From the NCBI GenBank assembly GCA_963785235.1, contig CAWAUM010000011.1, forward strand, positions 233,724-297,723: 64,000 nucleotides of DNA, in the 5' to 3' direction. Of this stretch, positions 35,888 through 64,000 are shown piece by piece. Source of the stretch: an uncultured delta proteobacterium (lineage in GTDB: Bacteria; Desulfobacterota; Desulfomonilia; UBA1062). The notes beneath the pieces are model-generated. The model did not search any database and was not told the origin of the DNA. It was given only the letters and a program-made list of their open reading frames with translations. Within the stretch, counting starts at the first letter, position 1; every line of letters starts with the position of its first letter. A program made the position numbers and the translations under genes.

Positions 35888-35911
35888 CTCGTCTTCATCT
35901 CCAGATAAGTA

Positions 35912-41660: not shown

Positions 41661-41746
41661 TCCGTTCAAAACCTGCATCTTGCAGCTTTGAAGGTCCGAC
41701 AGAATAAGCATAGAGAAAAGGCTGCAAGATGCAGGTTTTGAACGGA
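41661..41746. terminator. Perfect 26-bp palindrome with 34-nt loop; copy 3 of the palindromic element family
   Basis: tccgttcaaaacctgcatcttgcagc (41661-41686) pairs with gctgcaagatgcaggttttgaacgga (41721-41746), followed by taaggTTTTTa. Lies between the convergent PHP gene and the secretin gene. Confidence 0.6.
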
Positions 41747-41822
41747 TAAGGTTTTTACACCTCGTAACCGCAAAATCTGTCTTAAAGGCCTTGGAATGGT
41801 CGCAGCCATTCCCTACCATTCC

Positions 41823-45699: not shown

Positions 45700-45773
45700 A
45701 TTTGTGAGTGTAGAGGATAAACCTCTCCACTTACTATGTTCTCGGAATTACGATTTGGTTTCTTTAGGATATT

Positions 45774-46442: not shown

Positions 46443-47643
46443 GCTTGGACATGAGGTCGTAAACCGGACCGATAAGGGAAATGACGATGAAGACGAAGAT
46501 GCCGCCCGTTATGACTATGGCAATGGGCTCAATCATCTTGCCCAAGATGTCTACAAAACGCGATGTCTTCAATTCGTAGGTATCTGCAAGATATTTCAGC
46601 CTCTGATCCAGGGTACCGGTCTTCTCGCCCACGCTGACCATCTTCAACGTGATGGCATCAAAGAATTTCGTTACAGTGAAGGCCGTCAGCAACGAATTGC
46701 CCATGTTGGTTTCATTACGTATACGTATGATGACCGAGCGGATGAGGTCGTTGTGAAAGACCTTTTCAAGGATATCAAGCGCTTTTGTAAGTGTCACGCC
46801 GGACTGAAGCATGAGGGACATATTCGAGAATACCAGGGTAAGGGTTGAGCATTTCAGCAGATCGCCCACCACGGGAAGACTGAAGGCAACACGGCTCAGC
46901 ATCAATCGTGTTCTAGGAATTTTTCCCAGAATGACAAACCCTATGGTAATCAATCCGAGTGCAATGGGGTATAGCAACCAGTTATCTTTGGAGAATTGGA
47001 CGAAATTGACAAGGCTCAACGTGATATTGGGGAGCTGGACATTGATCTCCTTGAAGGTTGAAACAAGGCGGGGCAGCACGAAAAAGAGCCAGAAGATGAT
47101 GACGCACAGCATGGCAGCCACCACGAAGCCCGGATAGATCAGCGCCCTCTTCACCTGGGAAACAATACTGTCCACCTTTTTTAAATAATTCGCGGTATTG
47201 TCCAGGGCTGTTTGAATGGTACCGGTCTCTTCTCCGATATGGCAGAAAAATATGAGCATCTCGGGAAACACCTCGGGCCGGCGTGAAAATGCCCCTGATA
47301 AAGACTCTCCCTGGGCAATGCCCCCGATGACCTCATCGATTGCATCTCGCAGGCGTTTTACCCTGATGGTTTCCTTGATGCTTTCCATGGATTCCAGTAG
47401 GGGCAGGCCGCTGCCGAGCATGGAGGCAAGGGATTCACAGAATTCCGCTATCTCGATCTTCTTAACTGCCGGCTGGGTAAGGGTCTTGATGGTTTCAATT
47501 ATCTGATACCTCTGTTCGCTGTAACGGATAAGCGTCATTTCCTGAGAGGAAAGGTTCTCCATCAGATCCCGGATGCCCTCGAAATCGCCCTTGGAGGCAA
47601 AGATTGTTCCGTCTTTCTTCAGGGCATTGTACGAAAGGATCAT
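46429..47643 (-). CDS. Type IV filament platform protein (GspF/PilC/MshG family)
   Basis: 404 aa with two T2SSF repeats and three TM segments. ATGA-type overlap with the ATPase gene. Confidence 0.85.
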   Translation of the reverse strand: MILSYNALKKDGTIFASKGDFEGIRDLMENLSSQEMTLIRYSEQRYQIIETIKTLTQPAVKKIEIAEFCESLASMLGSGLPLLESMESIKETIRVKRLRDAIDEVIGGIAQGESLSGAFSRRPEVFPEMLIFFCHIGEETGTIQTALDNTANYLKKVDSIVSQVKRALIYPGFVVAAMLCVIIFWLFFVLPRLVSTFKEINVQLPNITLSLVNFVQFSKDNWLLYPIALGLITIGFVILGKIPRTRLMLSRVAFSLPVVGDLLKCSTLTLVFSNMSLMLQSGVTLTKALDILEKVFHNDLIRSVIIRIRNETNMGNSLLTAFTVTKFFDAITLKMVSVGEKTGTLDQRLKYLADTYELKTSRFVDILGKMIEPIAIVITGGIFVFIVISLIGPVYDLMSKLGGG

Positions 47644-49277
47644 TACCGCAAAACCCTCCAGATCTCTGCGAAGCTTGTCGTACCGTTAAGTATCTTGCGG
47701 ATGCCGTCACCCCGGAGCGTTACCATGCCTTCTTCCACAGCCTTGTCTTTGATCTCGAAGGGGTGTGACCCCACAGAGATGAGGCGCTCGATCTCTTTGG
47801 ATATAACCAGGATTTCCGCCACCATGATCCGGCCCAGGTAGCCGGTCTTTATGCACCTGGGGCATCCTACCGGGGCATACAGGGTTGTCCCTTTCTGGAT
47901 GCCGAATACACGGTGCTCTTCGTCGCCTGAATCATATGGCTGCTTGCAGCTCGGACAGAGTGCCCGGACGAGCCGCTGCGCTATGACGCAGATGAGTGAT
48001 GATGATATCATATAGTCCCTCATGCCAAGGTCTTTGAGCCTGGGTACGGCTCCGGAGGCATCGTTGGCATGCACCGTGGAAAGGACAAGGTGCCCTGTCT
48101 GCGCAGCGCGGAGCGCCATGGTCGCCGTATCGCCGTCCCGTATCTCACCGATAAGGATGACATCAGGGTCCTGCCGTAAAAAGGCCCTGACCGCGCTTGA
48201 GAAGATATACCCGGACTTCTCGTTAACCTGGGTCTGGCGGATCAGCGGGAACTGGTACTCAATGGGGTCTTCAACGGTCACGATATTTTTTTCAATGGAG
48301 CTGATCTCCCGCAAGGCCGCATATAAGGTTGTAGTTTTTCCTGACCCTGTGGGGCCGGAGACTAAGACCATGCCGTAGGGCTTGTGCAGAAGATCCCTGA
48401 GCTGGGTAATATCATCAGGATCCAGGCCAAGGCTCCGGATGTTATACAACTCCTCCGAGGAAGCCAGGATGCGCATGACCATGTTTTCCCCATTGGTAAC
48501 CTTTAAGGTAGAGACACGGATGTCATAGTGCTCATTTAAAAAATCAAAGGAGAGCCTTCCATCCTGGGGTTTGCGCTGTTCCGAGATGTCCATCTCGGCC
48601 TTTACCTTGATGCTGGAGATAACCCTGGAGTGCACCTCGATGGGAAAGGAGTAAAACGGGTAGAGTATGCCGTCGATGCGGTAGTGGATCTGTGTTGTCT
48701 TGTTCGTGGGGGTTACGTGGATGTCCGTTGCACGGGAGTTGATGGCGGACATGATCAGCAGCCTCACCAGTTTTTCTGTATCCACGTCGTGCGGATTATA
48801 CTTGGAATGTTCGAGCTGCTGCTCGATCTCTTCTTCTATGGGGTGTTCCAGGAGGTAATAGTCTTTTTCAATGTGCTTCTGTATCTGCGATGGCGATGCA
48901 GCCACAAACCGGATGCGTTTTTTCGAGATGCGTGAGGCAAGGTCTGACAGTTTCGTATTATCCGGTTCGCTCGTGGCTATGGTCAAGGTAGTGTCCTCGA
49001 CACTTATGGGAAGCAGGGAGTTCTCGCGTGCAAATTGCACGGGTAAAGCAGAGAGCGCTTCTTTCTGTGGTGAGAAATGACGCAGCTCTACAAACTCGAT
49101 GCTGAACTGTTTTGCAATGGACTGGGCAAGTTCCGTCTGGGTGACAAGGCCAAGACGGATCAGGATATCGCCGACCCGTTCCTTGGTGGCACGCTGTTCT
49201 ATAAGGGCAAGGCCGATTTCCTTATCGCTGATGATCCCTTCATCTTTGAGAAGATCACCAATGCGTTTTTTCTCCAT
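47643..49277 (-). CDS. Type IV filament extension ATPase (GspE/PilB/MshE family) with N-terminal MshEN c-di-GMP-binding domain
   Basis: 544 aa. Walker A GPTGSGKTTT, Asp box DPDVILIGEIRD, His box TGHLVLSTVHAND, and a tetra-Cys CPSC...CPRC motif. N-terminal tandem 24-residue RxGxx(L/I)...Q motifs separated by 5 residues. Confidence 0.9.
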   Translation of the reverse strand: MEKKRIGDLLKDEGIISDKEIGLALIEQRATKERVGDILIRLGLVTQTELAQSIAKQFSIEFVELRHFSPQKEALSALPVQFARENSLLPISVEDTTLTIATSEPDNTKLSDLASRISKKRIRFVAASPSQIQKHIEKDYYLLEHPIEEEIEQQLEHSKYNPHDVDTEKLVRLLIMSAINSRATDIHVTPTNKTTQIHYRIDGILYPFYSFPIEVHSRVISSIKVKAEMDISEQRKPQDGRLSFDFLNEHYDIRVSTLKVTNGENMVMRILASSEELYNIRSLGLDPDDITQLRDLLHKPYGMVLVSGPTGSGKTTTLYAALREISSIEKNIVTVEDPIEYQFPLIRQTQVNEKSGYIFSSAVRAFLRQDPDVILIGEIRDGDTATMALRAAQTGHLVLSTVHANDASGAVPRLKDLGMRDYMISSSLICVIAQRLVRALCPSCKQPYDSGDEEHRVFGIQKGTTLYAPVGCPRCIKTGYLGRIMVAEILVISKEIERLISVGSHPFEIKDKAVEEGMVTLRGDGIRKILNGTTSFAEIWRVLR

Positions 49278-49466
49278 AAGACCCGTTCCCGCTCCTTAAG
49301 CAGTGCAAATTGAGAAATCACTCAAAGATATGTCCCTGCAAGAATCTCCTGTTGGAGAGTAGCCTTTCGGGTTTGTCTTCCACCTTCCTATCACGAGTGG
49401 GTGCATGATGTGTCATGCCCCAAACAACGCACGTGTGGGCCGGAAGACACCATCCTCGTGATACGG

Positions 49467-50060
49467 CTACATTCTCCAGTAGACAGTCTTAACCGTTGTT
49501 GCCGTATAAACAGTGTTGGCCCTCATGGTCCCTGTGTTGTAAACCGCGTCATCATATTTTCTGTCCATTTCCTGGGCAACCTCATAGGGGATCTGGGTGT
49601 ACACGATACAGTTCGCGTTCAGCGGTGTTGCAGACCCTGGGGGAGTAGCCAAATACTGGATGTAGGCCTGGCCTCCAAAGGGGTTTGTAGGGTAATCGTT
49701 AGCCGCTCCGGTATAGCCCCCGTTGATGATCTGTGCCAAGACGAGGTCCTGGAAGAGAACAGAGCGCTCGGTATTCGCATTGATCTGGCCGTTTCCTGCA
49801 GTCGCAGCAGGATCTGTATGGCCCTGTGTCGGGATATTAGCTACAGGTGCATCACCCGGATAATAGTTATACCTGTCATAATAGGTATAGAAGGCCGCGG
49901 TGAGTGAATCCTTCTGGTTGACTAACTTCTTGACCTTTGCATTCTGAATGAGGGCCTCGCCCTTGAGTACGCCTGTAATGAGCAAGCCGATGATCACCAA
50001 CACCAGTGCAAGTTCAACAAGGGTAAAGCCGCCTTTTTGTCGATTTCTAAACCGTTCCAT
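49467..50060 (-). CDS. Prepilin-type major pilin candidate
   Basis: 197 aa. MERFRNRQKG/FTLVELALVLVIIGLLITG (short leader, Glu+5). It is its own transcription-unit-like gene, followed by a long hairpin and a 189-nt gap before the ATPase gene. Confidence 0.8.
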   Translation of the reverse strand: MERFRNRQKGGFTLVELALVLVIIGLLITGVLKGEALIQNAKVKKLVNQKDSLTAAFYTYYDRYNYYPGDAPVANIPTQGHTDPAATAGNGQINANTERSVLFQDLVLAQIINGGYTGAANDYPTNPFGGQAYIQYLATPPGSATPLNANCIVYTQIPYEVAQEMDRKYDDAVYNTGTMRANTVYTATTVKTVYWRM

Positions 50061-50180
50061 GCATACACCTCCTGATAGAGTAGCGCCTAGCTGTAAGCTC
50101 TAGTAAGCACCCAATCGGTATAATCCACATTCTTCTTTAGTAATTGCTCGATATGGCTTGAATTATGGAAAGGGAAGAGC

Positions 50181-52331
50181 TTATTCTTTATGCGTAATGA
50201 TTCGTCTCCCAAGTGTCAGGGGGGATATGCCCGGTATAGTGGAGATGTCCTTGTTATATACAGCTCCTGTTGAAGATATGAATTTCATGACACCATTGTC
50301 CAGATCAATGGAAGGACCAAAAGCGCTGCCCATAAACATGGCCTCTGACTTTGTTTGCCTTCCAGTGAGGGAATCATACTCTTGAAACATGGATATGCCG
50401 GTGTCAATACCTCCGCAGGGAGAATCTTCTTTCCAGGTGCTTAAGAATAACCTGTTATCCATGATTGTCATGCCTGAGGGTGAGCCTCCTTCAAGGGAGA
50501 CAGACCAAACGATATTCTCTTTGGTATAGCATTCAAGGCGTTTATTACTTGCCACGATGAGGTGAAGCTCCTTTCGCCAATGGAACGGACGTATCTCCAT
50601 AATGGGATTATTGGCGGTGGTGTTTATGATGCCCAAGAGTTCGAGCCTGTTGTTAAAAAGATAGACAAGTCCGTCGGATGTCCCTGCAAAAACCCCAGCT
50701 GTGCACGGATCATAGCGCACGACATTAATGGTATGATTAACTTCGAATTGAGCCGTCCCTATGCCGTTTCCAAGATTGTACGCATATATCGTGGAGCCGT
50801 TACTGATATAGGCCATGGATTCGGATGCGTCGATAAAAGACCCTTTATGCTGCCAGATTATCTGAGGTCCCTGGCCTATACACGAAATGATGCCCAGTCT
50901 GTTCGGGCCTGTTATGACCCGTTCGCCTCTCAGTCGCACCTCGCCCCCTATACCTGTCATGAGCCACGTCAGGCTGCCTTCGGGCATGGTGACATTGAGG
51001 AGCTGATCGCGGGATGTAGTGCAGTACAGGTCTGTCTGTGTGGCTGCAAGGTCATGGGCAAGGCCATTCAGGGAATAACCCGGGCAGGATACCAGGCTTA
51101 AAGGACTGACGACACTCGGTCTGTAAAACCGGCATTTGTCGGTTTTGAGCCATGGCGGATCGAGCCGTGCACGGAGGTTTTTCAGTATCATGTCCTGGTC
51201 GTTACGAACCACTATAGGCTGGGTAACCAGCATCTGTTCAGGAACGAGTATCTCCCGTGCCGGCATATACTGACCCCCGCCCTTTATAGCAACACTTCTC
51301 AGATACGCCGTATCAGGGCCGATAATGTGGACATTGATGCCCAGAGACTTCGCATAGGATGAGACATCATCAAGGCAGTGAGAGCCTTCCCCTTCAAAGG
51401 CAGCATCTTTGGCGTTTCCATCATGATCAAAGTCCTTCAGCCAGGAGGGGAGATGGCCGTCGTTTATGGGAACACCTGCAGTAACCAGAATGATATGTTT
51501 GCCGGATACACACTGCGAAGGGAACAGGGTTGTTGCATTATAAAGTGCCTCCGATAAAGGGGCTGAGCCCGATGCCGGATGAACGCCGTCAAGGCCCTGA
51601 AGGATCTGCTGCCATTCAATGGTAAAAGTTTGGATCAGGCCTTGTGACGTGCTCATAAGGGACACTTCACACAGATCCAGTGATTCAAAGAGCGACTTTG
51701 CGTAGGAGAAGGACTTTGTCCACACTGACATTGCACCTGTCAGGCTGCCGAGTGCCGGGGCCCTTTGATATGAGTTGCCCCAGCTTCCCTTGAAATAGGT
51801 GCCCTCAGCGTTCGTGTAGGTGTCTTCAAACTCACAGATATCACTGATGTGGGTTATGCCGCCTGTGGCCCATTTTGAGTAGAGCGCATCGTCTAAGAAA
51901 TCTTGGCCGGATGATGTAATCGTGCTTAATGAATCATCGATGATAATTATGATATGTGGTCTCTGGGCAATCCGGGTGGTGCCTTGTGGGATATCCGCAC
52001 TCTGTTCCCTTAGTGCCACACACCAGGAATATGACTGCATGGCGCTGGTTGCATGTTCGGTGAGCCTGGTGGAAAAACATATATGGTCCCACCCTTCAGG
52101 CGCCACAAGCAGTTTATGGGTTGCGGATGGCATAGTCCCGTTTTGGGGAGCAAAGAGCTGATCTTTAATAATACGATAGAAGGCGTTGCTCGATTTCATA
52201 TGGTACAAGGTTATGGAAGCGGACGCCATGGTAAGCCCCAGGATCACGGTAAGGAGTAGGAGTACAAAGGCAAGGATAAAACCTTGCTCATTGGATGGGG
52301 GATGATAAAGAGAGTTCCTTCTCTGTTCCAT
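50181..52331 (-). CDS. PilY1-like candidate tip adhesin: PilX_N-type anchor + vWA domain + beta-propeller
   Basis: 716 aa. N-terminus EQGFILAFVLLLLTVILGL (PilX_N-like hydrophobic helix). vWA beta-1 with DxSxS (HIIIIIDDSLS), HIILVTAG, INVHIIGP. The C-terminal roughly 300 aa holds PQQ-like propeller repeats (STIYAYNLGNG, GLVYLFNN). Confidence 0.6.
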   Translation of the reverse strand: MEQRRNSLYHPPSNEQGFILAFVLLLLTVILGLTMASASITLYHMKSSNAFYRIIKDQLFAPQNGTMPSATHKLLVAPEGWDHICFSTRLTEHATSAMQSYSWCVALREQSADIPQGTTRIAQRPHIIIIIDDSLSTITSSGQDFLDDALYSKWATGGITHISDICEFEDTYTNAEGTYFKGSWGNSYQRAPALGSLTGAMSVWTKSFSYAKSLFESLDLCEVSLMSTSQGLIQTFTIEWQQILQGLDGVHPASGSAPLSEALYNATTLFPSQCVSGKHIILVTAGVPINDGHLPSWLKDFDHDGNAKDAAFEGEGSHCLDDVSSYAKSLGINVHIIGPDTAYLRSVAIKGGGQYMPAREILVPEQMLVTQPIVVRNDQDMILKNLRARLDPPWLKTDKCRFYRPSVVSPLSLVSCPGYSLNGLAHDLAATQTDLYCTTSRDQLLNVTMPEGSLTWLMTGIGGEVRLRGERVITGPNRLGIISCIGQGPQIIWQHKGSFIDASESMAYISNGSTIYAYNLGNGIGTAQFEVNHTINVVRYDPCTAGVFAGTSDGLVYLFNNRLELLGIINTTANNPIMEIRPFHWRKELHLIVASNKRLECYTKENIVWSVSLEGGSPSGMTIMDNRLFLSTWKEDSPCGGIDTGISMFQEYDSLTGRQTKSEAMFMGSAFGPSIDLDNGVMKFISSTGAVYNKDISTIPGISPLTLGRRIITHKE

Positions 52332-52980
52332 GGTATCTTGACCTCATGCGAATTGTCAGATCATTGCCTGAAATCGTTGGATGAAAGAGGACTACTGCCT
52401 CTGCAAGCAGTTGGTTGTTCCGGTAGAGGCCGTCTCCCTTCAGTTCATAGTGGATAGCCGGGACCGCCCTGTTGCCTTGTACAGGCATTATGGCGCATGT
52501 CAGAGGGAGGGTTTTTTTATCCAGGCCCCGTGAATAGTTGTGGCCTACAACACAGGGGCCGTTCTCGGTTATTATTCCAAGGTCGGCCCAGAAGTCTGCG
52601 CGGCCGTCATTGTCGATATCTACGGTATCGAGTATTGCAACCCTTTCAGCTGAGGAATTGATGAGTGCATAGTAAGGTGCCGGATTGGTCAAGGATATGC
52701 TGATACCGGGATTTTCAGATGTGACAGGCACCCCTGCAATAAAAAGCTGGCTGCCTTCAATCGCAATCTTAAGGTCCTGCGGGAGCAATAATGCACACTG
52801 AACGAGATCTGCATTCAGCTGGATAGAGGCCTGGCGGAGCGACTGCATGCAATACCATGCCTCTCTCATTTCTTTATGCGTAACAGCCGAAACCTGGTAG
52901 AATTGATAGAGAGCGAGAAAAAGTATTGATGAGCATGCAAGCGCTATAAGCAACTCCACCATGCCCACACCTCTTTCCAT
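52288..52980 (-). CDS. Minor pilin, PilW-like prepilin-type protein
   Basis: 230 aa. MERG/VGMVELLIALACSSILFLAL (Glu+5). First gene of the cluster, overlapping the next gene by 44 nt. Confidence 0.65.
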   Translation of the reverse strand: MERGVGMVELLIALACSSILFLALYQFYQVSAVTHKEMREAWYCMQSLRQASIQLNADLVQCALLLPQDLKIAIEGSQLFIAGVPVTSENPGISISLTNPAPYYALINSSAERVAILDTVDIDNDGRADFWADLGIITENGPCVVGHNYSRGLDKKTLPLTCAIMPVQGNRAVPAIHYELKGDGLYRNNQLLAEAVVLFHPTISGNDLTIRMRSRYHGTEKELSLSSPIQ

Positions 52981-53200
52981 TGTATGCCCCTTCCACTATA
53001 AAATATACTTATATGAAAGGAGGGATAATTCTTGGGAATAGAGATTAAACAAGAGAGAGCAGCAAGCTCAACAACAATACAATAAATACAGTTTAATATA
53101 ATACTATGAACCCGGTGCTTGTCAAGGGATGAAAGTACGCCTTAGGAAAATGACAATGGACAACCTTAAGAGATATTGATAATAATCGCACCAAAACAAG

Positions 53201-54855
53201 ATGGAGCGCATGCAGAGCAGGGGAAATATACTTATCGCGGTTATTGTGGTGATCGCCATTGCCATGACCCTGTTCCTGATTGTACCCCTTGGCGGTAAGG
53301 TGGGGCAGCTCAGGGAAGCCACCATCTCGTTCATCTTCCGGAAGCCCCCGCAGTTCACCTCCATGGAGGTCGATGTGGAGGGGGCCCGCAAGGTGGTAAG
53401 AGCGGGTGAGTCACTCAAGATCAAGGGTGGTGAGACCATCATCATCACCAAGGTCCATGCAAATACGTTCTTCGATTCATACCTGTCTGCTGATGTTGTA
53501 GGCTTCAGTAAACCAAACGACATGAATGAACCCATCGATACGGTGGAGATCCGCAATCAGCTCATAGCCGCCGGCATCAAATCGGTCCCCATTGATATTT
53601 TCTACCTCGACCGGAAGATCGCCAAGGTCCCCCTTGAGTTGGATCTGAATGAGCAGGACTTTATCAATCAGATAAGATCAGCCAAGAGTGATGAGGAAAA
53701 GATCTCCCTTTTGCGCTCCGCACATGCAACATTTCCGAAGAATATGTCCTTTCTGGATGAGCTTGATAAGCTCTTGAGTGCTAAAGAAGATTACCAGGCA
53801 CTGGTGGGGATCTATAAGGGGGTTGTGGAAGCCGATCCTGCGAATTTGGCGGCATACTTGAATCTCTCAGCATATTACATAAAGCTGAAGAACTACGATG
53901 AGGCCCTTGCCATGTGCCGGAAAATTATCGATGCGGGCAAGGCGGATGCGGTCATTTACCGCCGCATGGCCTATATCGCAGGCGAAAAGGGTGATCTTGA
54001 AAACCGTGTTGTATACCTGAAAAAGGCCCTTGAACTTGATAAACAAAACGAAGCCGTGGTTGTCGACCTGGCCAAGACCTATGAACAGGCAGGCATGAAA
54101 CAGCAGGCCCTTGATGTGTACCAGTCTGCTTCGGATATTGCCAAGGACAGGGATATCCTTATCCCTCTGATTCAAAATGCGATGAAAAAAGAAGATTATA
54201 AAAAGGCGCTCGATCTTCTGAAGCGCTACATTCAGCGCTACCCCAATGATAAGAATGCCACTTGCTCAGCTTGCCATGGTCATGGGCAAGCTGGGTGATA
54301 CAAAGGCGCAGGTTATATATTACCAGAAGGCGGCTGAACTTTCGCCTTCAGACAGCGTGATCTGGTATAACCTCGGTGTTGCCCGCGAAAAACTCGGCGA
54401 TAACAAGGGCGCCCTTGACGCCTATGACAAAGGTGCTCCAGATGAAGCAGGCAGATATGGATTCCATGCAGGCTGCGGCAGGCCTGTCTTTGAAACTGGG
54501 CCAGTACAAGGATGCATACGCGTATTATTCATCCCTGGCGAAAAAGACATCCAAGAAGGAACACCTTAAGGGACTTGTGAGCGCCGCTGTCGGATTGAAG
54601 GACCAGGACAAGGTTATCGAGGCCGGTACCTTGTTCCTCAAGAACAACAAGGACCATGACGTGGCCATGGCACTCGGGTATGCCTATGAGTCCAGGGCTT
54701 CTACACGTGAGCCCCGGGCAAAGCTGGATGACCTGAATAAGGCCTTGGAGGCATATCAGACAGCCCGTAAGGTCAATCCCGCATCCAGGATTGCAGGCGA
54801 GAAGATACCCGAGCTTAAGATTGAGATCCTTAAGCTCAGGAAGGCAAGGCAGTAA
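53201..54855 (+). CDS. Membrane-anchored TPR-repeat protein (two frame interruptions near 54255 and 54430)
   Basis: N-terminal TM helix (ILIAVIVVIAIAMTLFLIV), a roughly 130-aa unknown domain, then many TPR units continuing through track ORFs 53201-54298, 54246-54569 and 54376-54855. Divergent from the pilus cluster, in a position analogous to MshN/PilF-type TPR proteins. Confidence 0.65.
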
Positions 54856-54863
54856 GGCCGCGT

Positions 54864-55553
54864 GTGTATATGAGCCCTGGGAGTCAAACACACGTCATGG
54901 ATAGGACGTTTGCCATCGGAGACATCCATGGATGTCTCGATAAACTCGAAGACCTCATAAAGCTCATCGATCCTGGCCCGAAGGACAGCCTGATTTTTCT
55001 GGGTGATTACGTCGACCGGGGCGAATCCGCCTCAGAGGTGATCGATTACCTTATAGATCTTGCGCGCAGGGTGCCCTGTGTTTTTTTGCGGGGCAACCAT
55101 GAGGATATGTTTATCACCTTCTTGGAGTTCGGCTCGAATAAGACGATCTTTTTTGCCAATGGCGGCCTTAAGACCATCGAGTCCTACATCAAGCCCGAAC
55201 GTTTTACCGGCAATGACCAGGTGGCCCGAAGGTTGCCCGAGGCACATAGAGATTTTCTCTCAAATCTCAAGCTGTATCATGAGGATGACGGGTATATTTA
55301 TGTGCATGCAGGCATCAAGCCCGGCAATCCCATGATAGAGCAGGACAGGTATGACCTTCTCTGGATCAGGGACGAGTTCATCTTTTCGCCCACCGGCATG
55401 GAGAAGAAGGTGATCTTCGGGCATACACCCTTTGCCAGGCCCATGGTGAAACCGGATAAGATCGGGATAGATACCGGGGCGGTCTATGGCGGGGTTCTCA
55501 CGGCCATAGAGATCCCGGGCGAAACATTCATCCAGTCCTTCAGGCAGGCATAG
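54864..55553 (+). CDS. PPP-family metallophosphoesterase (PrpE/ApaH-like Ser/Thr phosphatase)
   Basis: Motifs GDIHG, GDYVDRG and GNHE. The likely start is MDRTFAIGDIHG, slightly inside the track ORF. Confidence 0.8.
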   Translation: MYMSPGSQTHVMDRTFAIGDIHGCLDKLEDLIKLIDPGPKDSLIFLGDYVDRGESASEVIDYLIDLARRVPCVFLRGNHEDMFITFLEFGSNKTIFFANGGLKTIESYIKPERFTGNDQVARRLPEAHRDFLSNLKLYHEDDGYIYVHAGIKPGNPMIEQDRYDLLWIRDEFIFSPTGMEKKVIFGHTPFARPMVKPDKIGIDTGAVYGGVLTAIEIPGETFIQSFRQA

Positions 55554-55577
55554 GCCTTATAAACGAGAATAACAGCC

Positions 55578-56237
55578 ATGTCCAAGGATTATTACCGGAT
55601 TCTGGAAATATCCAAGGATGCAACGTCTTTAGAGATCAAGAAGACCTACCGCAGGCTCGCCCTTCAATATCACCCTGATCGTAACCCCGATAGACCCGGC
55701 CTATAGAGCATTTCAAGGAGATCACCGAGGCATACGGGGTGCTTATCGACCCGGACAAGCGGCGGAAATATGACATGCAGCGTGAGATTCTCCTTCAACC
55801 GGGAGACGGTGTTCGAAGATATCTTATCCAAATCAGAGTTCCGGGACGTCTTCGATGATCTGCCCATACGAAAAGAATGGATTGACCGCATATTGAACGT
55901 GAGCAAGGTCTTTGCCTATGAGGCCTTTGTGGTGGGAGGCACGCCCAGTGCAATCCTGAGGCGGTCCATGGTGCGCCTGGCATCGCAGGGATTGAACAGG
56001 ATGTTCCATGCAGTCATGGACATGCACGAAAAGGTTGCCATCCCTTCAAGCATTGCCGTGCTCGGGGGATACATAACCCTGGAGTACAGGCCGGGCTTTG
56101 TGAAACACAAGATCCGTGTGAAAATACCCAGGAACACGCAGCAAGGCACAATGCTCAGGGTCCTGGGGATGGGCAGGTCAAGCCCGTCAAGAAAGGCAGG
56201 GGACCTCTATTTGCAGGTGGACATCGAATCGTTGTAA
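55578..56237 (+). CDS. J-domain (DnaJ/CbpA-like) protein (two frame interruptions near 55700 and 55790)
   Basis: ATG at 55578. [38 protein letters not shown], then [21 protein letters not shown] in a second frame. The C-terminal fragment (track ORF 55770-56237) ends [10 protein letters not shown], like the DnaJ C-terminal domain. Confidence 0.7.
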
Positions 56238-57151
56238 ATGACGATCTGGTTCTTGCCGTGCGTCTTGCCCCAGTACATGGCCGCATCCGCCATTTTGATG
56301 ACCTCGTGCGGATCGCTGGAATCCTTCGGCAGGCTGGAAAGGCCTATGGTGACGCTGACCTCAAGCGTTGATTCAACCGTGCTGCAGATACGCTCTGACA
56401 CCACCACGGCCTCTTCAATGGAGGTTTCGGGGAAGAGGATAATGAACTCCTCGCCGCCATAACGGGCAAGGATGTCGCAGTTTCTCGTGTTATGCTTGAA
56501 CACATGGGACAGGCGCACGAGCATTTCGTTGCCCTATTCATGCCCTTTGGCGTCGTTGTACTTCTTGAAATCGTCGATATCGATCATGGCCAGAGACATT
56601 GTCCTGTTGTACCGCAGGTGTCTCGAAACCTCGTTCTTGAGTACGCTCATGAGGTGCCGGAAATTGTACATGCCCGTGAGTTCGTCGGTGCGGGAGAGGT
56701 TCCGGTAGTAGTCAGCCAGTTCGGCCTCCTCTTTGAGCCTGACCTCTTCGAGGATCCTTTGGATGGTGAGGTGGAGGTGGTCGAGCAGAATCGGTTTGGT
56801 AATAAAATCCGAGGCGCCGAGCTTCATGCATTCCACTGCATCACGAATGGTGCCGTACCCGGTAATCATGACAGCCTGGATATCGGACCTGATCTTTTTG
56901 ATGGATTTCAATAACTCCGAACCTGTCATGCCCGGCAGGTGAAGATCCACAATGGCTATATGAAAGAGGTCTTTCTGGACGAATGCAATTGCCTGCTCCC
57001 CACTCATGGCGGTTGTTACATCAAAATCGTGCCCTAAAAGATACTCTTCAATAAGATCAAGGGTCTCCTGTTCATCATCCACAATCAGGACCCGAGTTGT
57101 TTTCTTCACAAGCGTGGCACCCATCGTATCAGCCGTTCTCCTTGTCCTCAC
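56207..57151 (-). CDS. Response regulator-diguanylate cyclase (REC-GGDEF) with an in-frame TAG at 56534-56536
   Basis: REC domain (IAIVDLHLPGMTG). GGDEF domain split as ...YNDAKGHE-TAG-GNEMLVRLSHV...RYGGEEFIILF. Both halves are in the same frame (track ORFs 56534-57151 and 56207-56524). Confidence 0.8.
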
Positions 57152-57348
57152 ATAATAATTCCATGAAGAGAACTTACAACTATCTTCATACTAACGGATA
57201 ATTGTCTACAATTCATGAGAGTTATTTTCGTTTACCGTCAGGGGGTGCTAGTATTAGCGAAATAATTTCAAGTAGGTGTCTCATGAGCTTTTATGTATAA
57301 CAGAATTCCCTCTAAAGATATTTTAAAAAAAGTCCGTTAAAGGGTGGG

Positions 57349-58156
57349 ATGCAACAGGCTTGTCTTATCAAGAAGATTGAACAGCATATTGAGAGTATTC
57401 CGACGCTTGAGTCCAGCCGGATGAGGCTCTTTAATGTGCTCCAGGAGGAAGAATCCTCCATAGAGGGTATTGAGCAGGTAATATCCAGTGATCCTGCCCT
57501 TGTAGCCAAAGTGATCAAGCTGGCGAATTCGTCGTTCTACCGTCATGCCGACAGGCATGTGGGAATCCAGCAGGCATTACGCACCATCGGTCTTGACATG
57601 GTGAAATGCATCGCATTGTCCATGGCCGTGATGGAGACCTTCGGCACCCAGACCCCTTCAATGAAGCAGCTCTGGAGGCATTCCTATGCAGTGGCTTATA
57701 TATCAGGACTGCTCGGGAATTCCAAAGCCGAGAAGGAGTGTCTCTTCACCGGGGGGCTTCTCCATGATATCGGCAGGATGATACTGATCTGCAGAGACAC
57801 CTGAACACTATCTTCCCCTTTGCGAATTCACCGGTAGCTGGCCCGATCTGGCATTAGAGCGCGATGTTTTCTCCATGGACCACACAATAATCGGCGAAAT
57901 GATCGCGAAGCGCTGGCATTTTCCGCCGGAAGTCATAGCGCTGATAAGGTATCATCATGAACCAATGAGCCGAGCAACCGCCCTTGTTTATCTGACGGAT
58001 CAGGTCGTCATGCAGCATGAGAGGGGTTTGATCACAGAAGATTTTGAGCAGGAGGTCGGAATCAGAAACCATCTTGGTGATGAGTATAAAGATCTTGTAA
58101 ATACTATTAGACAAAGGTATAGAACGAACACGGTTATATTTGAAAATTTGGGGTAA
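57349..58156 (+). CDS. HDOD-domain signalling protein (frame interrupted near 57800)
   Basis: IESIPTLESSRMRLFNVLQEE..IEQVISSDPALVAKVIKLANSSFY, then GGLLHDIGRM. Continues as EHYLPLCEF..DHTIIGEMIAKRWHFP in a second frame. Confidence 0.75.
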
Positions 58157-58164
58157 GGGGCATT

Positions 58165-60292
58165 GTGTTTGCCGTGAAGGAGCTGCATATTCTACGGGGC
58201 GAATCCACAGAGCTTACCTCGACTCGTGAAGCGATCCTGCTTGATCTCCTCAGCAAGGCCTCTGATTTCTATGAACAAACGGTAGGGGTACTTTCTTCCA
58301 TCTTCGAGATCACCGAATTCGTCTCTAAAGGCTCTCCGGAGAGCGATTTTTTCGCTTATGTAACAGGCGTGCTCATCGAGGAGTCAAGGTGTGAAAACGC
58401 CTCAATCTTCATGGTGGAGAACGGCATGGTAGTACTCAAGGCCGCTTCCGGTATAACAATAAACAATGCCAATCCTCATGTGAGCATGGCACTCGGAGAG
58501 GGTGTTGCCGGAACCTGTGCACAAGATGGAAAGACCATCTTAGTTCATGATGTACAAGACTGTGAATTTTTCAAAAAGATGGATTCCGCCAAGGTAACCA
58601 TTGGTTCCATGCTGTGCGTGCCCATTAAGGAAGGAAACCGGACGCTCGGCGTCATGAACCTGTCCCACTCATGCAAGGGCTTATTTCAATGTCCATTATG
58701 TCCGGGTGTTTGAGCTCATGGGCCTGCTCATCGGCCAGATGCTTACCCTGGTGCAGCTCTATGAAGTCTTCCATCGGAAAAATTCAGATTTGACTGAACT
58801 CTTAAGCGAAAGAGACGAATCTTTACGAAGCGTTACCGAGAGGTATAAGGCGGTTGTCGATATTTCCGAGGAGATGATATTCATTATCGACATGGCAGGC
58901 CGTGTCCTGTTTCTCAACAGGGCCCTGCAGTTACTCCTGACAAGGCCGCCAGTGACCATTTCGGATATCTTCGATGAGAGGTGCGTTTCCTTGATCCTTG
59001 AAACCGTTTCTCAGGCAGATACCGGACATTCCACCGAGTTTGATCTCAATGTGAAGGTGGGAGATAAGGCCGATGTCATCGCTCAGTTCTTTGTCAAGCA
59101 TATCGATACCGACCAGATTCTCGTAATTATGCGTGACATCACTGCCAAGAAGCGCATGGAGCAGAAGACCATGCAGACAGAGAAGCTCACCTCGCTCGGG
59201 CTTCTTACCTCCGGGATAGCCCATGAGCTCAACAACAAGCTCACGCCTATCCTGGGATTTGCCGACCTCATGGACCCGGATCATCTGACCCCTCAGGACA
59301 AAAAGAGGCTTTCCATCATCATCAACTCGGCCTCGGCCGCCAAGGGCATTGTGGAATCCCTGCTCAAGTTTTCCCGGAACAAACCCCCGGAGAAGAACAT
59401 CTTCGACATGCGTGATGTTATCAAGAGGACTATGAACCTCTATAGCCCCATCATCAAGAAGCGCGGTATAGAAATCATCAACGAGGATCCTGAAGAGCCG
59501 CTGTACATTAAGGCAGACATGAATTGCATGGAGCAGGTGCTCGTGAACTTCATCAACAATTCCATCGATGCCATTGATGAGCACCCCGGCACCATCTGGA
59601 TCAGGTCGTTCATCAATGATGAATTTGTAAATGTCACTATTGAGGATACTGGTCCAGGCATTGCTGAAGGCGTCAAGACAAAGATATTTGATCCGTTTTT
59701 CACCACCAAGCCGAAGGACAAGGGAACAGGACTCGGGCTTTCCATATGCTACGGGATCATTTCCGACCACAAGGGCGAGGTGTTCATTGAAAATACAAGC
59801 AATGGCGCCATGGCGACCATGAAGATCCCTGCCATCATGGATATGGACGCCAAAGACAGGGATGCTGTCATAGATGATGAGCCCGCCTGCACGCCCTCTG
59901 ACAGCCGGAAGAGGCAGAGCCTGATCATGGTGGTGGAGGACGAGGCGGATCTCCTTGACCTCATGGTGGACACCTTGAGCCCGCACTACAAGGTCATCAC
60001 CTTCGAGAACGGCAGGAAGGCCTGTGATAACATCGAAGAGTATGCCTGGGAACTCATCATATCCGACCTGAGGATGCCGGTGATGAACGGCATGGAATTC
60101 TACCACGAGGCGATAAAGAAGAACCCGGGTTTAAAAAAGAGGTTCTTGTTCATTACCGGTGATACCTATGACTTCCAGGTTAAGGAATTTCTTGAGACCA
60201 CCGGTGTAACATTCCTGAGGAAGCCTTTCAGGATCAAGGAGTTGAGGGAATCCGTGCACAAGCACCTGCAATTGAGGATGATTAAGGAATGA
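58165..60292 (+). CDS. Hybrid sensor histidine kinase GAF-PAS-HisKA-HATPase-REC (frame interrupted near 58690)
   Basis: GAF domain (GEGVAGTCAQDGKTILVHDV), H-box SGIAHELNNKLTPILGF, N-box NFINNSIDAI, G-boxes EDTGPGI and GTGLGLS. C-terminal REC (LIISDLRMPVMNG). Confidence 0.85.
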
Positions 60293-60963
60293 GTATTAAG
60301 AGGATACTCGTTGTGGACGATGAAGAGATCGTCCGTTATTCACTGAAAAATATCCTTACAACCAATGGGTTTGAGGTGGATGAAGTAGGCTCTGCCGAGG
60401 AAGCGCTCAAACTCCTCTATACCAAGAGCTTTCATCTGGTGCTCACCGACCTTGTGCTGGAAGGCATGGGCGGGCTTGAGTTGCTGGAGAACATCAAGGT
60501 TATATCGCCCAGGACACTGGTGATCGTGATTACGGGCTATGGTTCCCTGAAGACCGCTGTGGCTGCCCTGAGGCTCGGGGTGTACGACTATCTCCTCAAG
60601 CCCTGTGACGAAAATGAACTCGTTTTGAGGGTGCGCAGGGCGCTTGAGATGCAGGGTTACGGCACGGAACAGAAAAAACTCCATGAATTAAGCGCCATTG
60701 CCAAGACCGCGGTGACACTCTCGGACAAGATCAATACCCCGCTCAACATCATCCTGGGCAACATCGAGATGCTCGAGCTCAGCCCGGAGCTTGAGAGGAA
60801 CACCAAGATACAAGAGACACTTCATGTCATGGAAACGCAGATATTCACCATCAAGAAGGTAATGGATAAGCTGGCCAGCCTCACGAACGCCGATACCAAA
60901 AGATACCCGGCTTTAAGGGATTATGAGATTATTGATTTGACAAGCGAGGGGGCCAATGATTAG
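60289..60963 (+). CDS. Response regulator receiver fused to a DHp/HisKA-like domain lacking the phospho-accepting His and any ATPase domain
   Basis: REC (LVLTDLVLEGMGG, KP). Residues around 125-200 align to a HisKA H-box, but as SDKINTPLNIILGNIEML (Asp146 where His is expected). ATGA overlap with the upstream kinase. Confidence 0.7.
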   Translation: MSIKRILVVDDEEIVRYSLKNILTTNGFEVDEVGSAEEALKLLYTKSFHLVLTDLVLEGMGGLELLENIKVISPRTLVIVITGYGSLKTAVAALRLGVYDYLLKPCDENELVLRVRRALEMQGYGTEQKKLHELSAIAKTAVTLSDKINTPLNIILGNIEMLELSPELERNTKIQETLHVMETQIFTIKKVMDKLASLTNADTKRYPALRDYEIIDLTSEGAND

Positions 60964-61435
60964 TTCAAAGCAGATCCTGATCGTTGATGATTCCCATGAC
61001 CTGACCCATGTGATAGCGGATTTCCTGGGCATGTACGGATACCAGGTTCATACGGCGCACAATGGGTACGATGCCTTGGAATGTATGCACTCGCAGCATA
61101 TCCAGGTCGTGGTGAGCGACATCCATATGCCTCGCATGGATGGATTCACGCTGATGGGAGAGATCAAGGCAAAGTACCCCGAGGTGCCCATTGTCCTGAT
61201 TACGGGATTTTCCGTTAGCGAGGCCCAGAAAATGGCCTTTGACCATGGGGCTAATGCCTTTGTTGCAAAGCCCTTCAAACTCAAGGAGCTCAAGAGTGTG
61301 ATAGAATCGGTTTCACAAGAAGATATACACAACAGCATTGAGGAGGTAGATAATGAAGAAGACGACCAAGGTGAAGAAACCCCAGAAGGTTCTCTGCTAC
61401 ATCGATTATGCAAAGTACAGCGCCTTTATTGTTGA
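60956..61435 (+). CDS. Single-domain response regulator (CheY-like) with acidic tail
   Basis: ILIVDDSHD, VVVSDIHMPRMDG and KPF motifs. The 3' end overlaps the well-supported USP start by 83 nt, so the true stop may be misplaced by an indel. Confidence 0.75.
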   Translation: MISSKQILIVDDSHDLTHVIADFLGMYGYQVHTAHNGYDALECMHSQHIQVVVSDIHMPRMDGFTLMGEIKAKYPEVPIVLITGFSVSEAQKMAFDHGANAFVAKPFKLKELKSVIESVSQEDIHNSIEEVDNEEDDQGEETPEGSLLHRLCKVQRLYC

Positions 61436-61813
61436 TTATGCATACCAGCTCTCTTGCCTTATTGATGCAGAGCTCTTTGTCCTTCATACCGTCACCGACA
61501 TCAAGAATGCTGCGGGTTTTTATGTCCCCCACATCAATACCGACAAGCTTGAAGAGGAAGTAATAAGGCAGCCAAAGACAAGATGTATTCCATCTGCAGC
61601 CAGGTGGGTGATGATGTGATCGATGCGAAGCACAGGCTTGTCATGAGGGGAATTCCCATCGATGTGATCAATAAGGTGATCAAGGACAAGGCAATTGAGC
61701 TGCTCATTATCGGCCATGAGGTCAGCAAGGGTGCCCTTGCCGGGTTCAGGAGCGATTATGCGGAGAAGTTCATGAAGAACCCGTCGATTCCTTTCCTGGT
61801 CTTGCCGGTTTAA
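61353..61813 (+). CDS. Universal stress protein family (frame interrupted near 61570)
   Basis: GGAGG lies 6 nt upstream of the ATG. KVLCYIDYAKYS..AELFVLHTV, then GDDVIDAKHRLVMRGIPIDVINKVIKDKAIELLIIGHE in a second frame. Confidence 0.7.
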
Positions 61814-61943
61814 TAAGGCTTATGGATGACATGATCCCAACTGTAGCCTGAGGCGGGATCTTTCCTTTTACGGACATCATCAAGTGGCGCCTGGTTTGAA
61901 CAAGAACCCCAGGGACTGCTCCGGGGTATAAAAGACAAGGCCT

Positions 61944-62715
61944 TTATCTTCTCTTAGCATCAGGATACGGGCACCCATGTGCATTTTTCATCCAGGGCGG
62001 GATGAGGGCAGCCTTAGCCCCCATCAGTGAAGGGTTATACCTGTGCTGCAGGATGGAGACCATGAGTTCATAGGTGTCCATTTTATCAATATCCCCGATA
62101 AAAACCCTCATGAAAGGACTCTTCAAGCGATGCCCTCCACTGACGCTCCAGGGGAAGGCCTTTTATGATTTCAATGGTCCCCGGAGCTGCTTCCTGGCGG
62201 AATAGAACTCAATTGCGTCCCCCCTGCCCGAGAAGTCGATACCGGCAGGGATGCATGCAGACAGGCTATCTGAACTCGCCAATGAACATGGAAGCTCGGT
62301 TGCCTTGATGGCTTCCGGCAGGAGGAACAGCTCAGGGGAGTTTCTCATGCTCGTGCCCATATAGTATGCATAGATCGACAGCGCGATGATGAAGATGCCG
62401 AAAAAGAAACGCAGGGGTTCCTTGTCTGGTTTCTTATTTAGAACCATTTGGGATGGATGGGTTTGTTGGAGAAAGTTTCCTTTTGTGTGCGTGTCGTAGT
62501 CATGCCCTATAGGGGGCTCTTCGAGGTATTCGTGCATGCGTTCTTCAGGCATGGGCCTCCCGGTCCTGTTCAGGCGGCCTGTCTGCATCCTTGCCGGCAG
62601 CCGTGTACTGCCCGAGGCGTTTCAGCAGCGCGGGAAGAACCAGGAAGAGGAGGAGGAGAATGATAGGCAGGAGTGAGTTAATGTCAATGGCAAAGGAGTT
62701 TCTTTCCATAATCAT
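61944..62715 (-). CDS. Hypothetical membrane protein(s); three fragments that may be one gene
   Basis: A 56-aa ORF at 62545-62715 ([33 protein letters not shown] helix). Then 62163-62588 (second TM helix FFFGIFIIALSIYAYYM). Then 61944-62126, in the same frame as the second fragment after an in-frame TAA at 62163-62165. No recognisable motif. Confidence 0.3.
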
Positions 62716-63352
62716 ATGATAATAACATAACGATCAAGTGAGTAAACACAAAAAATTTATCGTAGTACCTGGTCAGTCTCATGGAAGTTATGATCTGAGT
62801 CCAGAGTTCATCCATGCCGTCACCCTTGGCGGCAGAGGTTATAACCGGAGACAGCCCGCACTGCTTTGAAGCTCGGATGCACGCTTGAGCCGCTGGCCGT
62901 AGCTCAGCTTGTCGGTCTTGGTGGCAACGAGTACGACCTTGGCCGGGCTTTTCGCCATGAGTTCAATGAGCATACGCTCCTCATCCTTCAAGGTCCCTGC
63001 GTATGTCCACAAGCAGCATGACGAGCTTCAGTTCGTTGTTGTTCGAGAGATATGTGGCAATCAGCTCGTCCCAGTTCTGGCTTATGGTCCTTGGATACCT
63101 TGGCATAGCCATAGCCCGGCAGGTCCACCAGATAGATGGAGGGCTGGTCCACCAGGTCCACCCGGAAGAAGTTGACGGCCCTGGGTCTTGCCCGGCATCT
63201 TGCTTGTTTTTACCAGGGATTTGCGGTTCACCAGCGTGTTGATGAGCGAGGACTTGCCCACATTCGATCTGCCTGCAAAGGCGAACTGGGGAAGCCCGGC
63301 GCTTGATGGGGAAAGGGCCCGGCAAAGGTGCGTCGCGTATTTTCACCTTCAT
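62684..63352 (-). CDS. engB: Ribosome biogenesis GTPase EngB/YsxC (at least four frame interruptions)
   Basis: Pieces in different frames: [33 protein letters not shown] (G1), [14 protein letters not shown] (G3), [40 protein letters not shown] (G4), [12 protein letters not shown]. The ATG overlaps the aminotransferase stop (ATGA). Confidence 0.7.
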
Positions 63353-64000
63353 AGGCTTTTCAGATAGGAGGCCACCCGGGACACCCCCTCCACGATGTTT
63401 TTCTCCGAGTTGGCGTAGGAGAACCGGATATACCCTTCAGCCCCGGGCCCGAAATCGATGCCCGGGGTAACACCCACGCCCGTGTGCTCCAGGATATCCA
63501 TGGCAAACAGGCAGGGAGTCGGTGCAAAGATCGCCCATGTTCACCAGGACATAAAAGGCGCCGGTGGGCTCCACCTCCACGTTGAACCCGTGCCGGGACA
63601 TCTCGGCGAGCATGACCTTTCTCCGGCCGGCAAAGGTCTGACTGCATGTCCTCCACATCCGCACCCGCCTCGGTGAGTGCCGCGACCCCTCCCCACTGGG
63701 CGATGGAGGGCGCGCAGATCATGAGGTTCTGCTGGATCTTCTGGGCGGTACGGATCAGTGACGGGGGGAAGACGGCCCATCCCAGCCTCCAGCCGGTCAT
63801 GGCATAGGCCTTGGAGAAGCCGTTGATGACGATGGCATTGTCCGTGAATTCAAGGATGGTGTGCTGCTCGGATTCATAGACCAGCCCGTGGTAGATCTCG
63901 TCGGAGATAATGGGGATGCCGAGGTTGCCAAGGCCTTCAGGTGCTCCGTGTCCAGGCAGACGCCCGTGGGGTTTGCCGGCGAGTTGATGAGCAGGGTTTT
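63349..64000 (-). CDS. Class I/II (aspartate-type) aminotransferase, C-terminal part; gene runs off the window end; at least three frame interruptions
   Basis: Pieces: NGFSKAYAMTGWRLGW (PLP-Lys region), [86 protein letters not shown]-stop. Confidence 0.75.

Follow-up and report, generated by a model that had tools for sequence, protein, structure and literature searches.

Frame-disrupted genes accumulate in the last 11 kb (positions 53,201–64,000) of the 64,000-nt stretch of DNA analysed here, henceforth called the window, and raise the question of whether these genes are decaying in the organism or whether the sequence itself is faulty. The disruptions are very probably residual consensus errors of a long-read metagenome contig whose consensus changes lineage at ~63.0 kb. 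The events exist, are private to the window except for four that are common to another contig (L020; ENA contig_61464), are dominated by indels, and fall on genes whose selective signatures are intact. The window comes from a Desulfomonilia-type deltaproteobacterium; comparing it with E. coli gave no match, and scanning it for tRNAs and Rfam families returned nothing.

Disruptions were counted by aligning the window to collinear relatives with intact genes. A home-made 3-periodic Markov/Viterbi frame caller was discarded as the main counting method because it was too coarse and missed genes and short frame segments; it was kept for leads and for polarising the differences at 44,345 and 44,485. 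The regions 1–11.7 kb and 31.4–39.5 kb lay outside the close-reference comparison and were covered with Pfam, which returned mostly full-length domains and a few possible truncations. The alignments yielded 28 window-derived events in 53,201–64,000 (25 within ten genes, three intergenic), for which the first-pass annotation had given at least 17, an undercount, and the sharp rise in density that it described was reproduced: the event rate was 2.6 per kb in 53.2–64.0 kb versus 0.41 per kb in 11.7–31.4 kb and 0.07 per kb in 39.5–53.2 kb (binomial P = 8e-11 for at least 28 of 37 events in 24% of the assessed sequence; P = 9e-9 when all ambiguous events elsewhere are counted against clustering). 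Within the interval, the rate increased from 1.2 per kb (53.2–61.3 kb) to 6.7 per kb (61.3–64.0 kb; P = 1e-5); along the window, event density varied more than 30-fold, with its maximum in the last 2.7 kb. Independent of any reference, open reading frames of at least 200 aa covered 79% of 1–53.2 kb, 50% of 53.2–64 kb, and 24% of 61.3–64 kb. Disrupted genes elsewhere in the window include holA and those for a class A PBP and an NtrC-type activator. The disruption previously placed within 41.8–43.5 kb was recovered as a +1 insertion at 43,271 in a secretin gene, and the adjoining 43.5–53 kb, reported as free of disruptions, differed from the relative L021 only at 44,345 and 44,485, both of which are best assigned to L021 and not to the window. 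An intergenic ‘deletion’ at 31,250, at first taken as an error, was reclassed as a real variant by means of three short contigs (L022, L023, L024), which were 99.7–100% identical to the window without gaps over 3.8 kb of low-error regions. Contigs from run ERR10755943 matched the window at 99.9–100% identity.

From its start, the interval is occupied by the gene of a TPR-repeat protein (53,201–54,855, + strand; tblastn matches in frames 2, 3, and 1, and alignments), which two +1 insertions at 54,260 and 54,426 divide into three frames, the former also being present in L020; the gene is intact in relatives at 550–563 aa (550 aa in L021). The following metallophosphoesterase gene (54,864–55,553, + strand; 227–229 aa) is intact, with one additional G at 55,553 directly after its stop codon. 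Three +1 insertions (55,691, 55,703, and 55,783; net +3) scramble ~30 codons of the DnaJ-domain protein gene (55,578–56,237, + strand; alignments, with PF00226 and PF01556 in the gene calls) and introduce a stop; the gene encodes 218 aa in both L020 and L021. The response-regulator/GGDEF gene (56,207–57,151, − strand; a single-frame full-length tblastn match at 86–90%; 305–327 aa in relatives) bears one event, a nonsense change of TCG (Ser) to TAG at 56,534–56,536 that is private to the window. After an intergenic +1 insertion at 57,273, the HDOD-domain protein gene (57,283–58,156, + strand; tblastn and alignments; 279–290 aa in relatives) is cut by a single +1 insertion (G) at 57,796, and the same insertion was found in L020. 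The gene for a GAF/HisKA/HATPase/receiver hybrid kinase (58,165–60,292, + strand; tblastn and alignments), intact in relatives at 708–715 aa (L020 and L021: 708 aa each), is split into 182 and 528 aa by one +1 insertion (C) at 58,680. An intact response regulator gene (60,289–60,963, + strand; 224 aa), whose protein is 100% identical to its counterpart in L020, precedes a second one (60,956–61,435, + strand; gene calls and alignments), in which a lone 2-bp deletion at 61,327 alters and lengthens the C-terminus (159-aa ORF; 131 aa in L020).

The remaining genes lie in the densest part. A universal stress protein (Usp) gene (61,353–61,813, + strand; tblastn and alignments; 147–153 aa in relatives) has its frame split by one 1-bp deletion at 61,566, and its frame-corrected product matches that of L020 in 150 of 152 aa. 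One or more conserved hypothetical membrane protein genes (61,776–62,715, − strand; alignments; 225–237 aa stop-to-stop in relatives) carry six indels in 61.8–62.6 kb, i.e., at 61,882 (−1), 61,973 (+1), 62,128 (+1), 62,177 (−1), 62,493 (+1), and 62,553 (+1), with those at 61,973 and 62,128 common to L020; after frame correction, 225 of 236 aa are identical to L020. The engB gene, which encodes the YihA/YsxC ribosome-biogenesis GTPase (62,775–63,352, − strand; direct reading, alignments, and PF01926; 192 aa in relatives) and is essential in E. coli and B. subtilis, contains six 1-bp indels at 62,871 (−1), 62,987 (+1), 63,089 (+1), 63,183 (+1), 63,300 (−1), and 63,328 (−1). This corresponds to about one per 95 nt over ~580 nt, in line with the frame change every 100–200 nt read there earlier, and a frame-corrected translation has intact G1, G3, G4, and G5 motifs. 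The 3′ 650 nt of a class I/II aminotransferase gene (63,349–64,000, − strand; alignments; PF00155), which continues past the window end, hold three 1-bp indels at 63,513 (+1), 63,642 (+1), and 63,928 (−1), and this entire piece belongs to the diverged lineage described below.

In 18 collinear Desulfomonilia-type loci, the genes that are broken in the window are full length. Neither L021 (98.6% identical to the window) nor L012 (95%) has any of the window’s indels in 53–61.5 kb, where every gene broken in the window is intact in L021, and the indels of 61.5–64 kb are absent from L001, L002, L003, L005, and L017. Two public same-species Flye-style contigs (97–98.6% identical) have private +1 insertions of their own in genes that are intact in the window. 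In L020, at least eight such insertions affect window-intact genes, e.g., a 716-aa gene at 50.2–52.3 kb, and L025 (ENA contig_72265) has 13 private insertions within the 12.9 kb of 18.5–31.4 kb, among them breaks that split leuS (423 + 389 aa) and disrupt holA, and is nearly clean over 39.5–60 kb. Given the private insertions of L020 and the patchiness of L025, uneven error density is a general trait of these assemblies. Exact look-ups of the 716-aa, 198-aa, and 233-aa proteins, the truncated 151-aa HDOD product, and the 227-aa phosphatase gave no match, and the search for short-read contigs from this strain yielded none that span a disrupted site. The contig names are SPAdes-style (NODE) for L012 and Flye-style for L020, L021, and L025. 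LeuS of the window equals a protein (P0131) recorded on a contig of 299,769 bp, so the contig of origin probably exceeds the window's length by far.

Within engB, between 62,950 and 63,010, mismatches per 100 nt rise from 2–5 to 10–19. Identity to L020 is 97–98% upstream of ~63.0 kb and 86% downstream, and GC changes from 0.50 to 0.59 (0.57–0.61 downstream), with relatives rising only to 0.51–0.57; the GC content of about 60% estimated by eye for the end of the window came to 57.1% in 62,701–64,000 and 59.3% in 63,001–64,000, against 50.5% elsewhere in the window. The sequence divergence at the lineage switch is real. Window singletons in 63–64 kb number 19 per kb, with 8–21 per kb in the truly diverged L001, and many window states in this segment recur in other lineages. 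Differences from L020 fall on codon positions 1/2/3 as 27/22/78 (chi-square P = 1e-10). The codon bias and the L001-like singleton counts contradict another candidate, in which the last kb would be sequence of the upstream lineage with ~14% substitution error. From ~63.0 kb on, the window hence follows a different, unsampled lineage, owing to chimeric consensus or recombination; searches with the frame-corrected proteins and two JGI DNA pattern scans gave no donor closer than 84–88% aa identity (at most 84% for the EngB N-terminal part and at most 88% for the aminotransferase in the searched collections). The order Usp, 225-aa gene, engB, and aminotransferase is kept in L001–L005, L007, L009, L017, L018, and L020, and at least 15 relatives share the gene order across 62.7 kb. 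The chimeric or poorly polished join proposed in the first-pass annotation is also supported, by the change of lineage (identity falling from 98% to 86%, GC up) within the densest error zone; a misjoin of unrelated loci is ruled out by the synteny kept across the junction.

The switch is probably an assembly chimera rather than a natural recombinant. It is unlikely, if conceivable, that an allele comprising the engB 5′ part and the aminotransferase gene was imported by homologous recombination from a ~14% diverged congener, with the indels still being errors. Such an import would suit the gene order, which every relative keeps on both sides of the breakpoint, and the nature of the diverged segment, which is genuinely coding and under purifying selection; it would also suit the mosaic blocks of kb scale that the window, L020, and L021 form, a sign of a recombining population. 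However, these blocks diverge by only 1–3% elsewhere, not 14%, the donor lineage has no other sequence in the searched collections, and the coincidence with the window’s highest error density better fits an assembly path crossing populations.

The four indels at 54,260, 57,796, 61,973, and 62,128 are common to the window and L020 and absent from L021, L012, and L001. Random errors made independently would not be expected at the same sites, which leaves systematic error or true mutation as the origin of these four. Their presence in two contigs would agree with a reading in which only they are real, i.e., frameshifts in the TPR, HDOD, and 225-aa genes, and the other ~24 events are errors, which we consider rather improbable. 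Systematic basecalling errors, e.g., from strain-specific modified bases, could produce equal sharing, as could an origin of both contigs from one sample with cross-mapped reads. In addition, the window and L020 share three derived substitutions versus two indels in 50.3–60 kb, an error-like ratio, and the truncated HDOD product was found in no other assembly.

The lesions themselves are of one kind. Single- or two-base indels account for 27 of the 28 events, 18 being +1 insertions, and the remaining event is the TCG to TAG substitution; insertions exceed deletions ~2:1, no event is larger than 2 bp, and no IS insertion is present. In 61–63 kb, the window has ~12 indels but, at positions where six relatives all agree, not one singleton substitution; in 50.3–60 kb, private indels relate to private substitutions as 6:11 in the window and as 7:6 in L020. 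Unlike the textbook errors of Nanopore, 454, or IonTorrent data, the events are not concentrated in homopolymers: of 25 inserted bases, 20 match neither adjacent base and so extend no homopolymer run, a pattern also seen in L020 and L025. Scanned by eye, the contexts of the insertion sites showed no obvious shared motif (e.g., a methylation motif). Real substitutions between the window and L020 fall on codon positions 1/2/3 as 34/26/136 in 50.3–61.5 kb and 9/7/28 in 61.5–63 kb (chi-square P from 1e-4 to 1e-25 over all segments); this third-position excess indicates that the genes are under purifying selection, and the frame-corrected EngB, aminotransferase, Usp, and 225-aa proteins are conserved with their motifs kept.

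Genomes rich in pseudogenes, reportedly those of, e.g., Mycobacterium leprae and Sodalis glossinidius, resemble the window in having many conserved genes frameshifted and, here in one gene, interrupted by a stop codon. In decaying genomes, lesions vary in size, are biased towards deletions, and recur across strains, and IS elements and relaxed selection accompany them; apart from the four indels common to L020, the window shows none of these hallmarks, and its lesions are, moreover, packed into a few kb beside a lineage breakpoint. That this stretch of chromosome is in recent decay in this strain, with truly frameshifted genes, is highly improbable: the four indels common to an apparently independent contig, the nonsense substitution, and the TPR gene, in which the shared indel is followed downstream in each contig, within 190 nt, by a further private one as relaxed selection predicts, are outweighed by the near absence of private substitutions where indels reach 6.7 per kb, the uniformly small lesions without deletion bias or IS insertion, the preserved third-position bias, an engB with six lesions and all GTPase motifs, the intact genes of L021, and like breaks in other essential genes of other assemblies, e.g., leuS in L025. 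The earlier judgement that the pattern is assembly or consensus error and not biology is thus borne out by 1-bp indels with few private substitutions that are absent from relatives of 95–98.6% identity, by like private events in different genes of two same-species long-read-style assemblies, and by continued purifying selection on the conserved genes.

Consensus error as the preferred explanation could have arisen as follows. The window would be a slice of a contig assembled from a long-read metagenome (the technology being judged from indirect signs) of an uncultured Desulfomonilia bacterium, and nearly all disruptions would be spurious single-base insertions or deletions. This population may have had low local depth, or one backbone may have received reads from two related populations that occur together; polishing would then fail to resolve indels. 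The contig path would pass from one population to the other within a conserved gene, and at ~63.0 kb the consensus would move from the main window lineage to a congeneric lineage ~14% diverged.

Two known kinds of artefact are comparable. Strain- or species-level chimeric contigs likewise show an abrupt change of identity (here 98% to 86%) and GC inside a conserved gene, with collinearity kept and a poor consensus around the junction; they differ in that the second lineage here is absent elsewhere in the searched collections, and a natural recombinant looks alike in sequence. In Nanopore-only assemblies, single-base indels also break open reading frames and lower coding density, in a density that tracks local coverage, and L020, L021, and L025 have the same private +1 insertions; errors are tied to long homopolymers there, whereas 80% of insertions here lie outside them. 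Among named relatives, the nearest (L001 and L003) are MAGs from the Microflora Danica long-read catalogue, whose ‘MFD...bin’ MAGs are Nanopore-only and were produced with Flye --meta and one round of Medaka (PMC12313526). The authors of that catalogue describe Nanopore-associated errors in low-coverage MAGs, mainly linked to low coverage and long homopolymers (PMC12313526). The window probably stems from a pipeline of this type.

A tentative, minority reading is that the 63.0-kb segment is an import from an unsampled higher-GC, ~14% diverged Desulfomonilia lineage and/or that the four shared indels are genuine lineage-specific inactivations of the TPR, HDOD, and membrane protein genes; if true, such an import or such inactivations would be ordinary population-genomic variation with no new mechanism. 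The significance of the locus is limited to data hygiene. Gene calls in 53.2–64 kb, above all in 61.3–64 kb, should not be read as pseudogenes, and membership of the last kb in the same genome needs a read check first. Several public long-read contigs of this species carry private frame-breaking insertions in kb-scale patches outside homopolymers, and these patchy insertions call for caution in pseudogene or coding-density analyses on such MAGs.

According to Pfam matches, the window is an ordinary bacterial chromosome segment carrying pilMNOP (0.5–3.3 kb), dnaA (6,123–7,469), a block of holA, lptE, leuS, and a class A PBP (19–27 kb), rsmG, mnmE, jag, yidC, and rnpA (31,698–36,462), a type II secretion/type IV pilus-like cluster (41.8–50.1 kb), and, 3′ of this cluster, signalling genes followed by engB and an aminotransferase at the window end. 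With dnaA located approximately 25–30 kb from the rsmG-mnmE-jag-yidC-rnpA block, the gene neighbourhood is of the replication-origin type; despite this, cumulative GC skew rose monotonically over the whole window without a turning point.

A genome-collection scan with a 528-aa kinase fragment as query yielded 18 collinear loci from MAGs of uncultured Desulfomonilia or “delta proteobacterium,” the closest being L001 (90% nucleotide identity over 50,181–63,996) and L012 (95% over 53.1–61.5 kb). Three closer loci on two contigs were added via exact-protein look-ups: L020 (ENA ERZ25039462 contig_61464, 204 kb; 96.9% identity over 50,290–63,996), and L021 and L025, two pieces of ENA ERZ25039527 contig_72265 (108 kb), with 98.6% identity over 39,468–60,069 and about 98% over 11,665–31,393, respectively. 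JGI contigs L026 and L027 (about 90% identity) spanned 18.5–32.6 kb, and comparison of the window with E. coli returned no match. The 8.6-kb secretion/pilus cluster (41,560–50,180; secretin, T2SSE ATPase, T2SSF, N_methyl pseudopilins) is shared by the window, L021, and several of the more remote relatives but is missing from L001, where the PHP-domain gene directly adjoins the gene for a 716-aa protein; the cluster is a presence/absence polymorphism between close species. Contig_72265 additionally carries a 1,416-bp insertion with a DDE_Tnp_1 transposase, i.e., an IS element, next to a Big_5-domain gene (L025 2,879–3,976), which maps to window position ~28,714 and is absent from the window and the JGI contigs.

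Tblastn matches of the relatives’ proteins switched frames in 53.2–64 kb of the window, while the corresponding genes are intact in every relative, i.e., those encoding a TPR protein (550–563 aa), a phosphatase (~230 aa), a DnaJ-domain protein (218 aa), an RR-GGDEF protein (305–327 aa), an HDOD protein (279–290 aa), a GAF-kinase (708–715 aa), two response regulators, Usp (~150 aa), a hypothetical membrane protein (225–237 aa; 61.8–62.7 kb), EngB (192 aa), and the aminotransferase (~394 aa). Multiple alignments resolved 28 window-derived events in 53,201–64,000, 25 of them within genes; differences at 62,698 and 62,780 were assigned to L020 because L001 has the window’s state there. With the exception of a 2-bp deletion and a TCG-to-TAG nonsense change (56,534–56,536), all events were 1-bp indels, and +1 insertions made up 18 of the 28. 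Across the whole window, the inserted base differed from both neighbours in 20 of 25 insertions, which are therefore not homopolymer-length errors.

Measured against the same kind of reference, 11.7–31.4 kb contained eight events (13,491 in an ABC ATPase; 14,418; 18,104 in an NtrC-type activator; 19,137 and 19,594 in holA; 24,131 and 24,358 in the PBP; 27,260) and 39.5–53.2 kb a single one, in the secretin (43,271). Event density thus amounted to 0.41, 0.07, and 2.6 per kb in 11.7–31.4, 39.5–53.2, and 53.2–64.0 kb, respectively (binomial P = 8e-11), and reached 6.7 per kb in the last 2.7 kb. The rise over the final ~11 kb reported by the first-pass annotation is consequently real and statistically strong, and its figure of at least 17 disruptions was an undercount. 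The regions 1–11.7 kb and 31.4–39.5 kb were checked with Pfam only; candidate truncations of glgA, mnmE, yidC, and PolX/PHP at either the N- or the C-terminus would add a few events outside 53.2–64 kb and leave the conclusion unchanged. At 11,350–13,066, a PolX-type core (HHH_8, HHH_5, DNA_pol_B_thumb) and a PHP domain lie in two overlapping frames and are likewise called as separate genes in contig_72265 (L025 19,870–21,272). The split may be a frameshift shared by the two sequences, or two genes may truly be arranged in this way.

Five observations indicate consensus errors rather than mutations. Neither L021 nor L012 contained any of the events over their aligned spans. In a window/L020/L021 comparison polarised by L001, 9.8 kb held 11 private substitutions and six private indels in the window, and six and seven in L020; in 61–63 kb, the window showed about a dozen indels versus zero singleton substitutions at sites invariant in six relatives. 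Substitutions far outnumber indels in natural mutation, and the ratio observed here is what characterises an error process dominated by indels. Private +1 insertions of the same kind occurred in L020 and L025 within genes intact in the window, including the 716-aa gene (50.2–52.3 kb) in L020; in L025, leuS was split (423 + 389 aa), holA was broken, and a LysM protein had six events. Contig_72265 accumulated 13 events in 18.5–31.4 kb, yet was nearly clean in 39.5–60 kb, and patchy error density is therefore general for these assemblies. True differences between the window and L020 fell mostly at third codon positions in each of the zones 50.3–61.5, 61.5–63, and 63–64 kb (P 1e-4 to 1e-25), and proteins were conserved after removal of indels: frame-corrected EngB retained G1 (GRSNVGKSS), G3 (DLPGYG), G4 (TKTDK), and G5 (SA), and frame-corrected Usp was identical to L020 at 150 of 152 residues. 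Among the disrupted genes, engB, holA, and that for a class A PBP are essential in model bacteria. The earlier attribution to an assembly artefact, with a chimeric or poorly polished join, is supported.

L001 and L003, the nearest named relatives, are MFD...bin MAGs from a catalogue built on Nanopore data only, with Flye --meta and a single Medaka round; its authors describe Nanopore-associated errors in MAGs of low coverage (PMC12313526). The way the contigs are named and the character of the errors suggest that the window stems from this pipeline or one like it. LeuS of the window is identical to a protein recorded on a 299,769-bp contig, and the contig from which the window derives is probably some 300 kb long. 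Three short contigs matched the window without gaps at 99.7–100%, all in clean regions, and validated one intergenic variant; two are Logan contigs of run ERR10755943 (30,694–32,006, 100%; 49,240–50,309, 99.9%), a run in which the same strain is probably present and which could serve to polish or verify the contig.

Four indels (54,260, 57,796, 61,973, 62,128) were common to the window and L020 and absent elsewhere; systematic error, read cross-mapping (should the two contigs share a sample of origin), and genuine frameshifting are the candidate explanations, and a search for short-read contigs spanning any disrupted site found none. In the TPR gene, 3′ of the shared +1 at 54,260, the window (54,426) and L020 (54,448; 4,140–4,163 in L020) each have one further private +1, only 22 nt apart, which may mean that errors are frequent at this spot or that selection was relaxed once a real frameshift had occurred.

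Identity to L020 was 97–99% per 500-nt bin up to 63.0 kb, save 94% at 62.0–62.5 kb, and 86% in the last two bins, with mismatches per 100 nt going from 2–5 to 10–19 at ~62,950–63,010, within engB. The last kb represents a different congeneric lineage, roughly equidistant from all relatives (aminotransferase 82–88% amino acid identity, EngB N-terminus at most 84%); no closer match was present in a protein database of ~5.8 billion sequences or the JGI contigs. The GC-rich end noted previously was confirmed (59% in 63–64 kb versus 50.5% elsewhere) and is partly intrinsic to the aminotransferase gene, since the relatives’ GC also climbs there (0.55–0.63); the remainder is lineage-specific. An assembler splice, in which the consensus path would cross between co-occurring populations, is slightly preferred over natural recombination, since consensus quality is at its worst where the breakpoint lies. 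Substitution noise was rejected as the source of the divergence given the third-position bias (27/22/78 at codon positions 1/2/3), a singleton count (19 per kb) within the span recorded for L001, itself truly diverged, and window states often recurring in other lineages. Gene order is the same across the breakpoint in all relatives, so a join of unrelated loci was ruled out. Within 50,290–60,069, sites discriminating the window, L020, and L021 formed kb-scale blocks in which the odd one out varies, which suggests either that the population recombines frequently or that the assemblies are mosaic in consensus. The biology here is nothing beyond ordinary strain-level variation.
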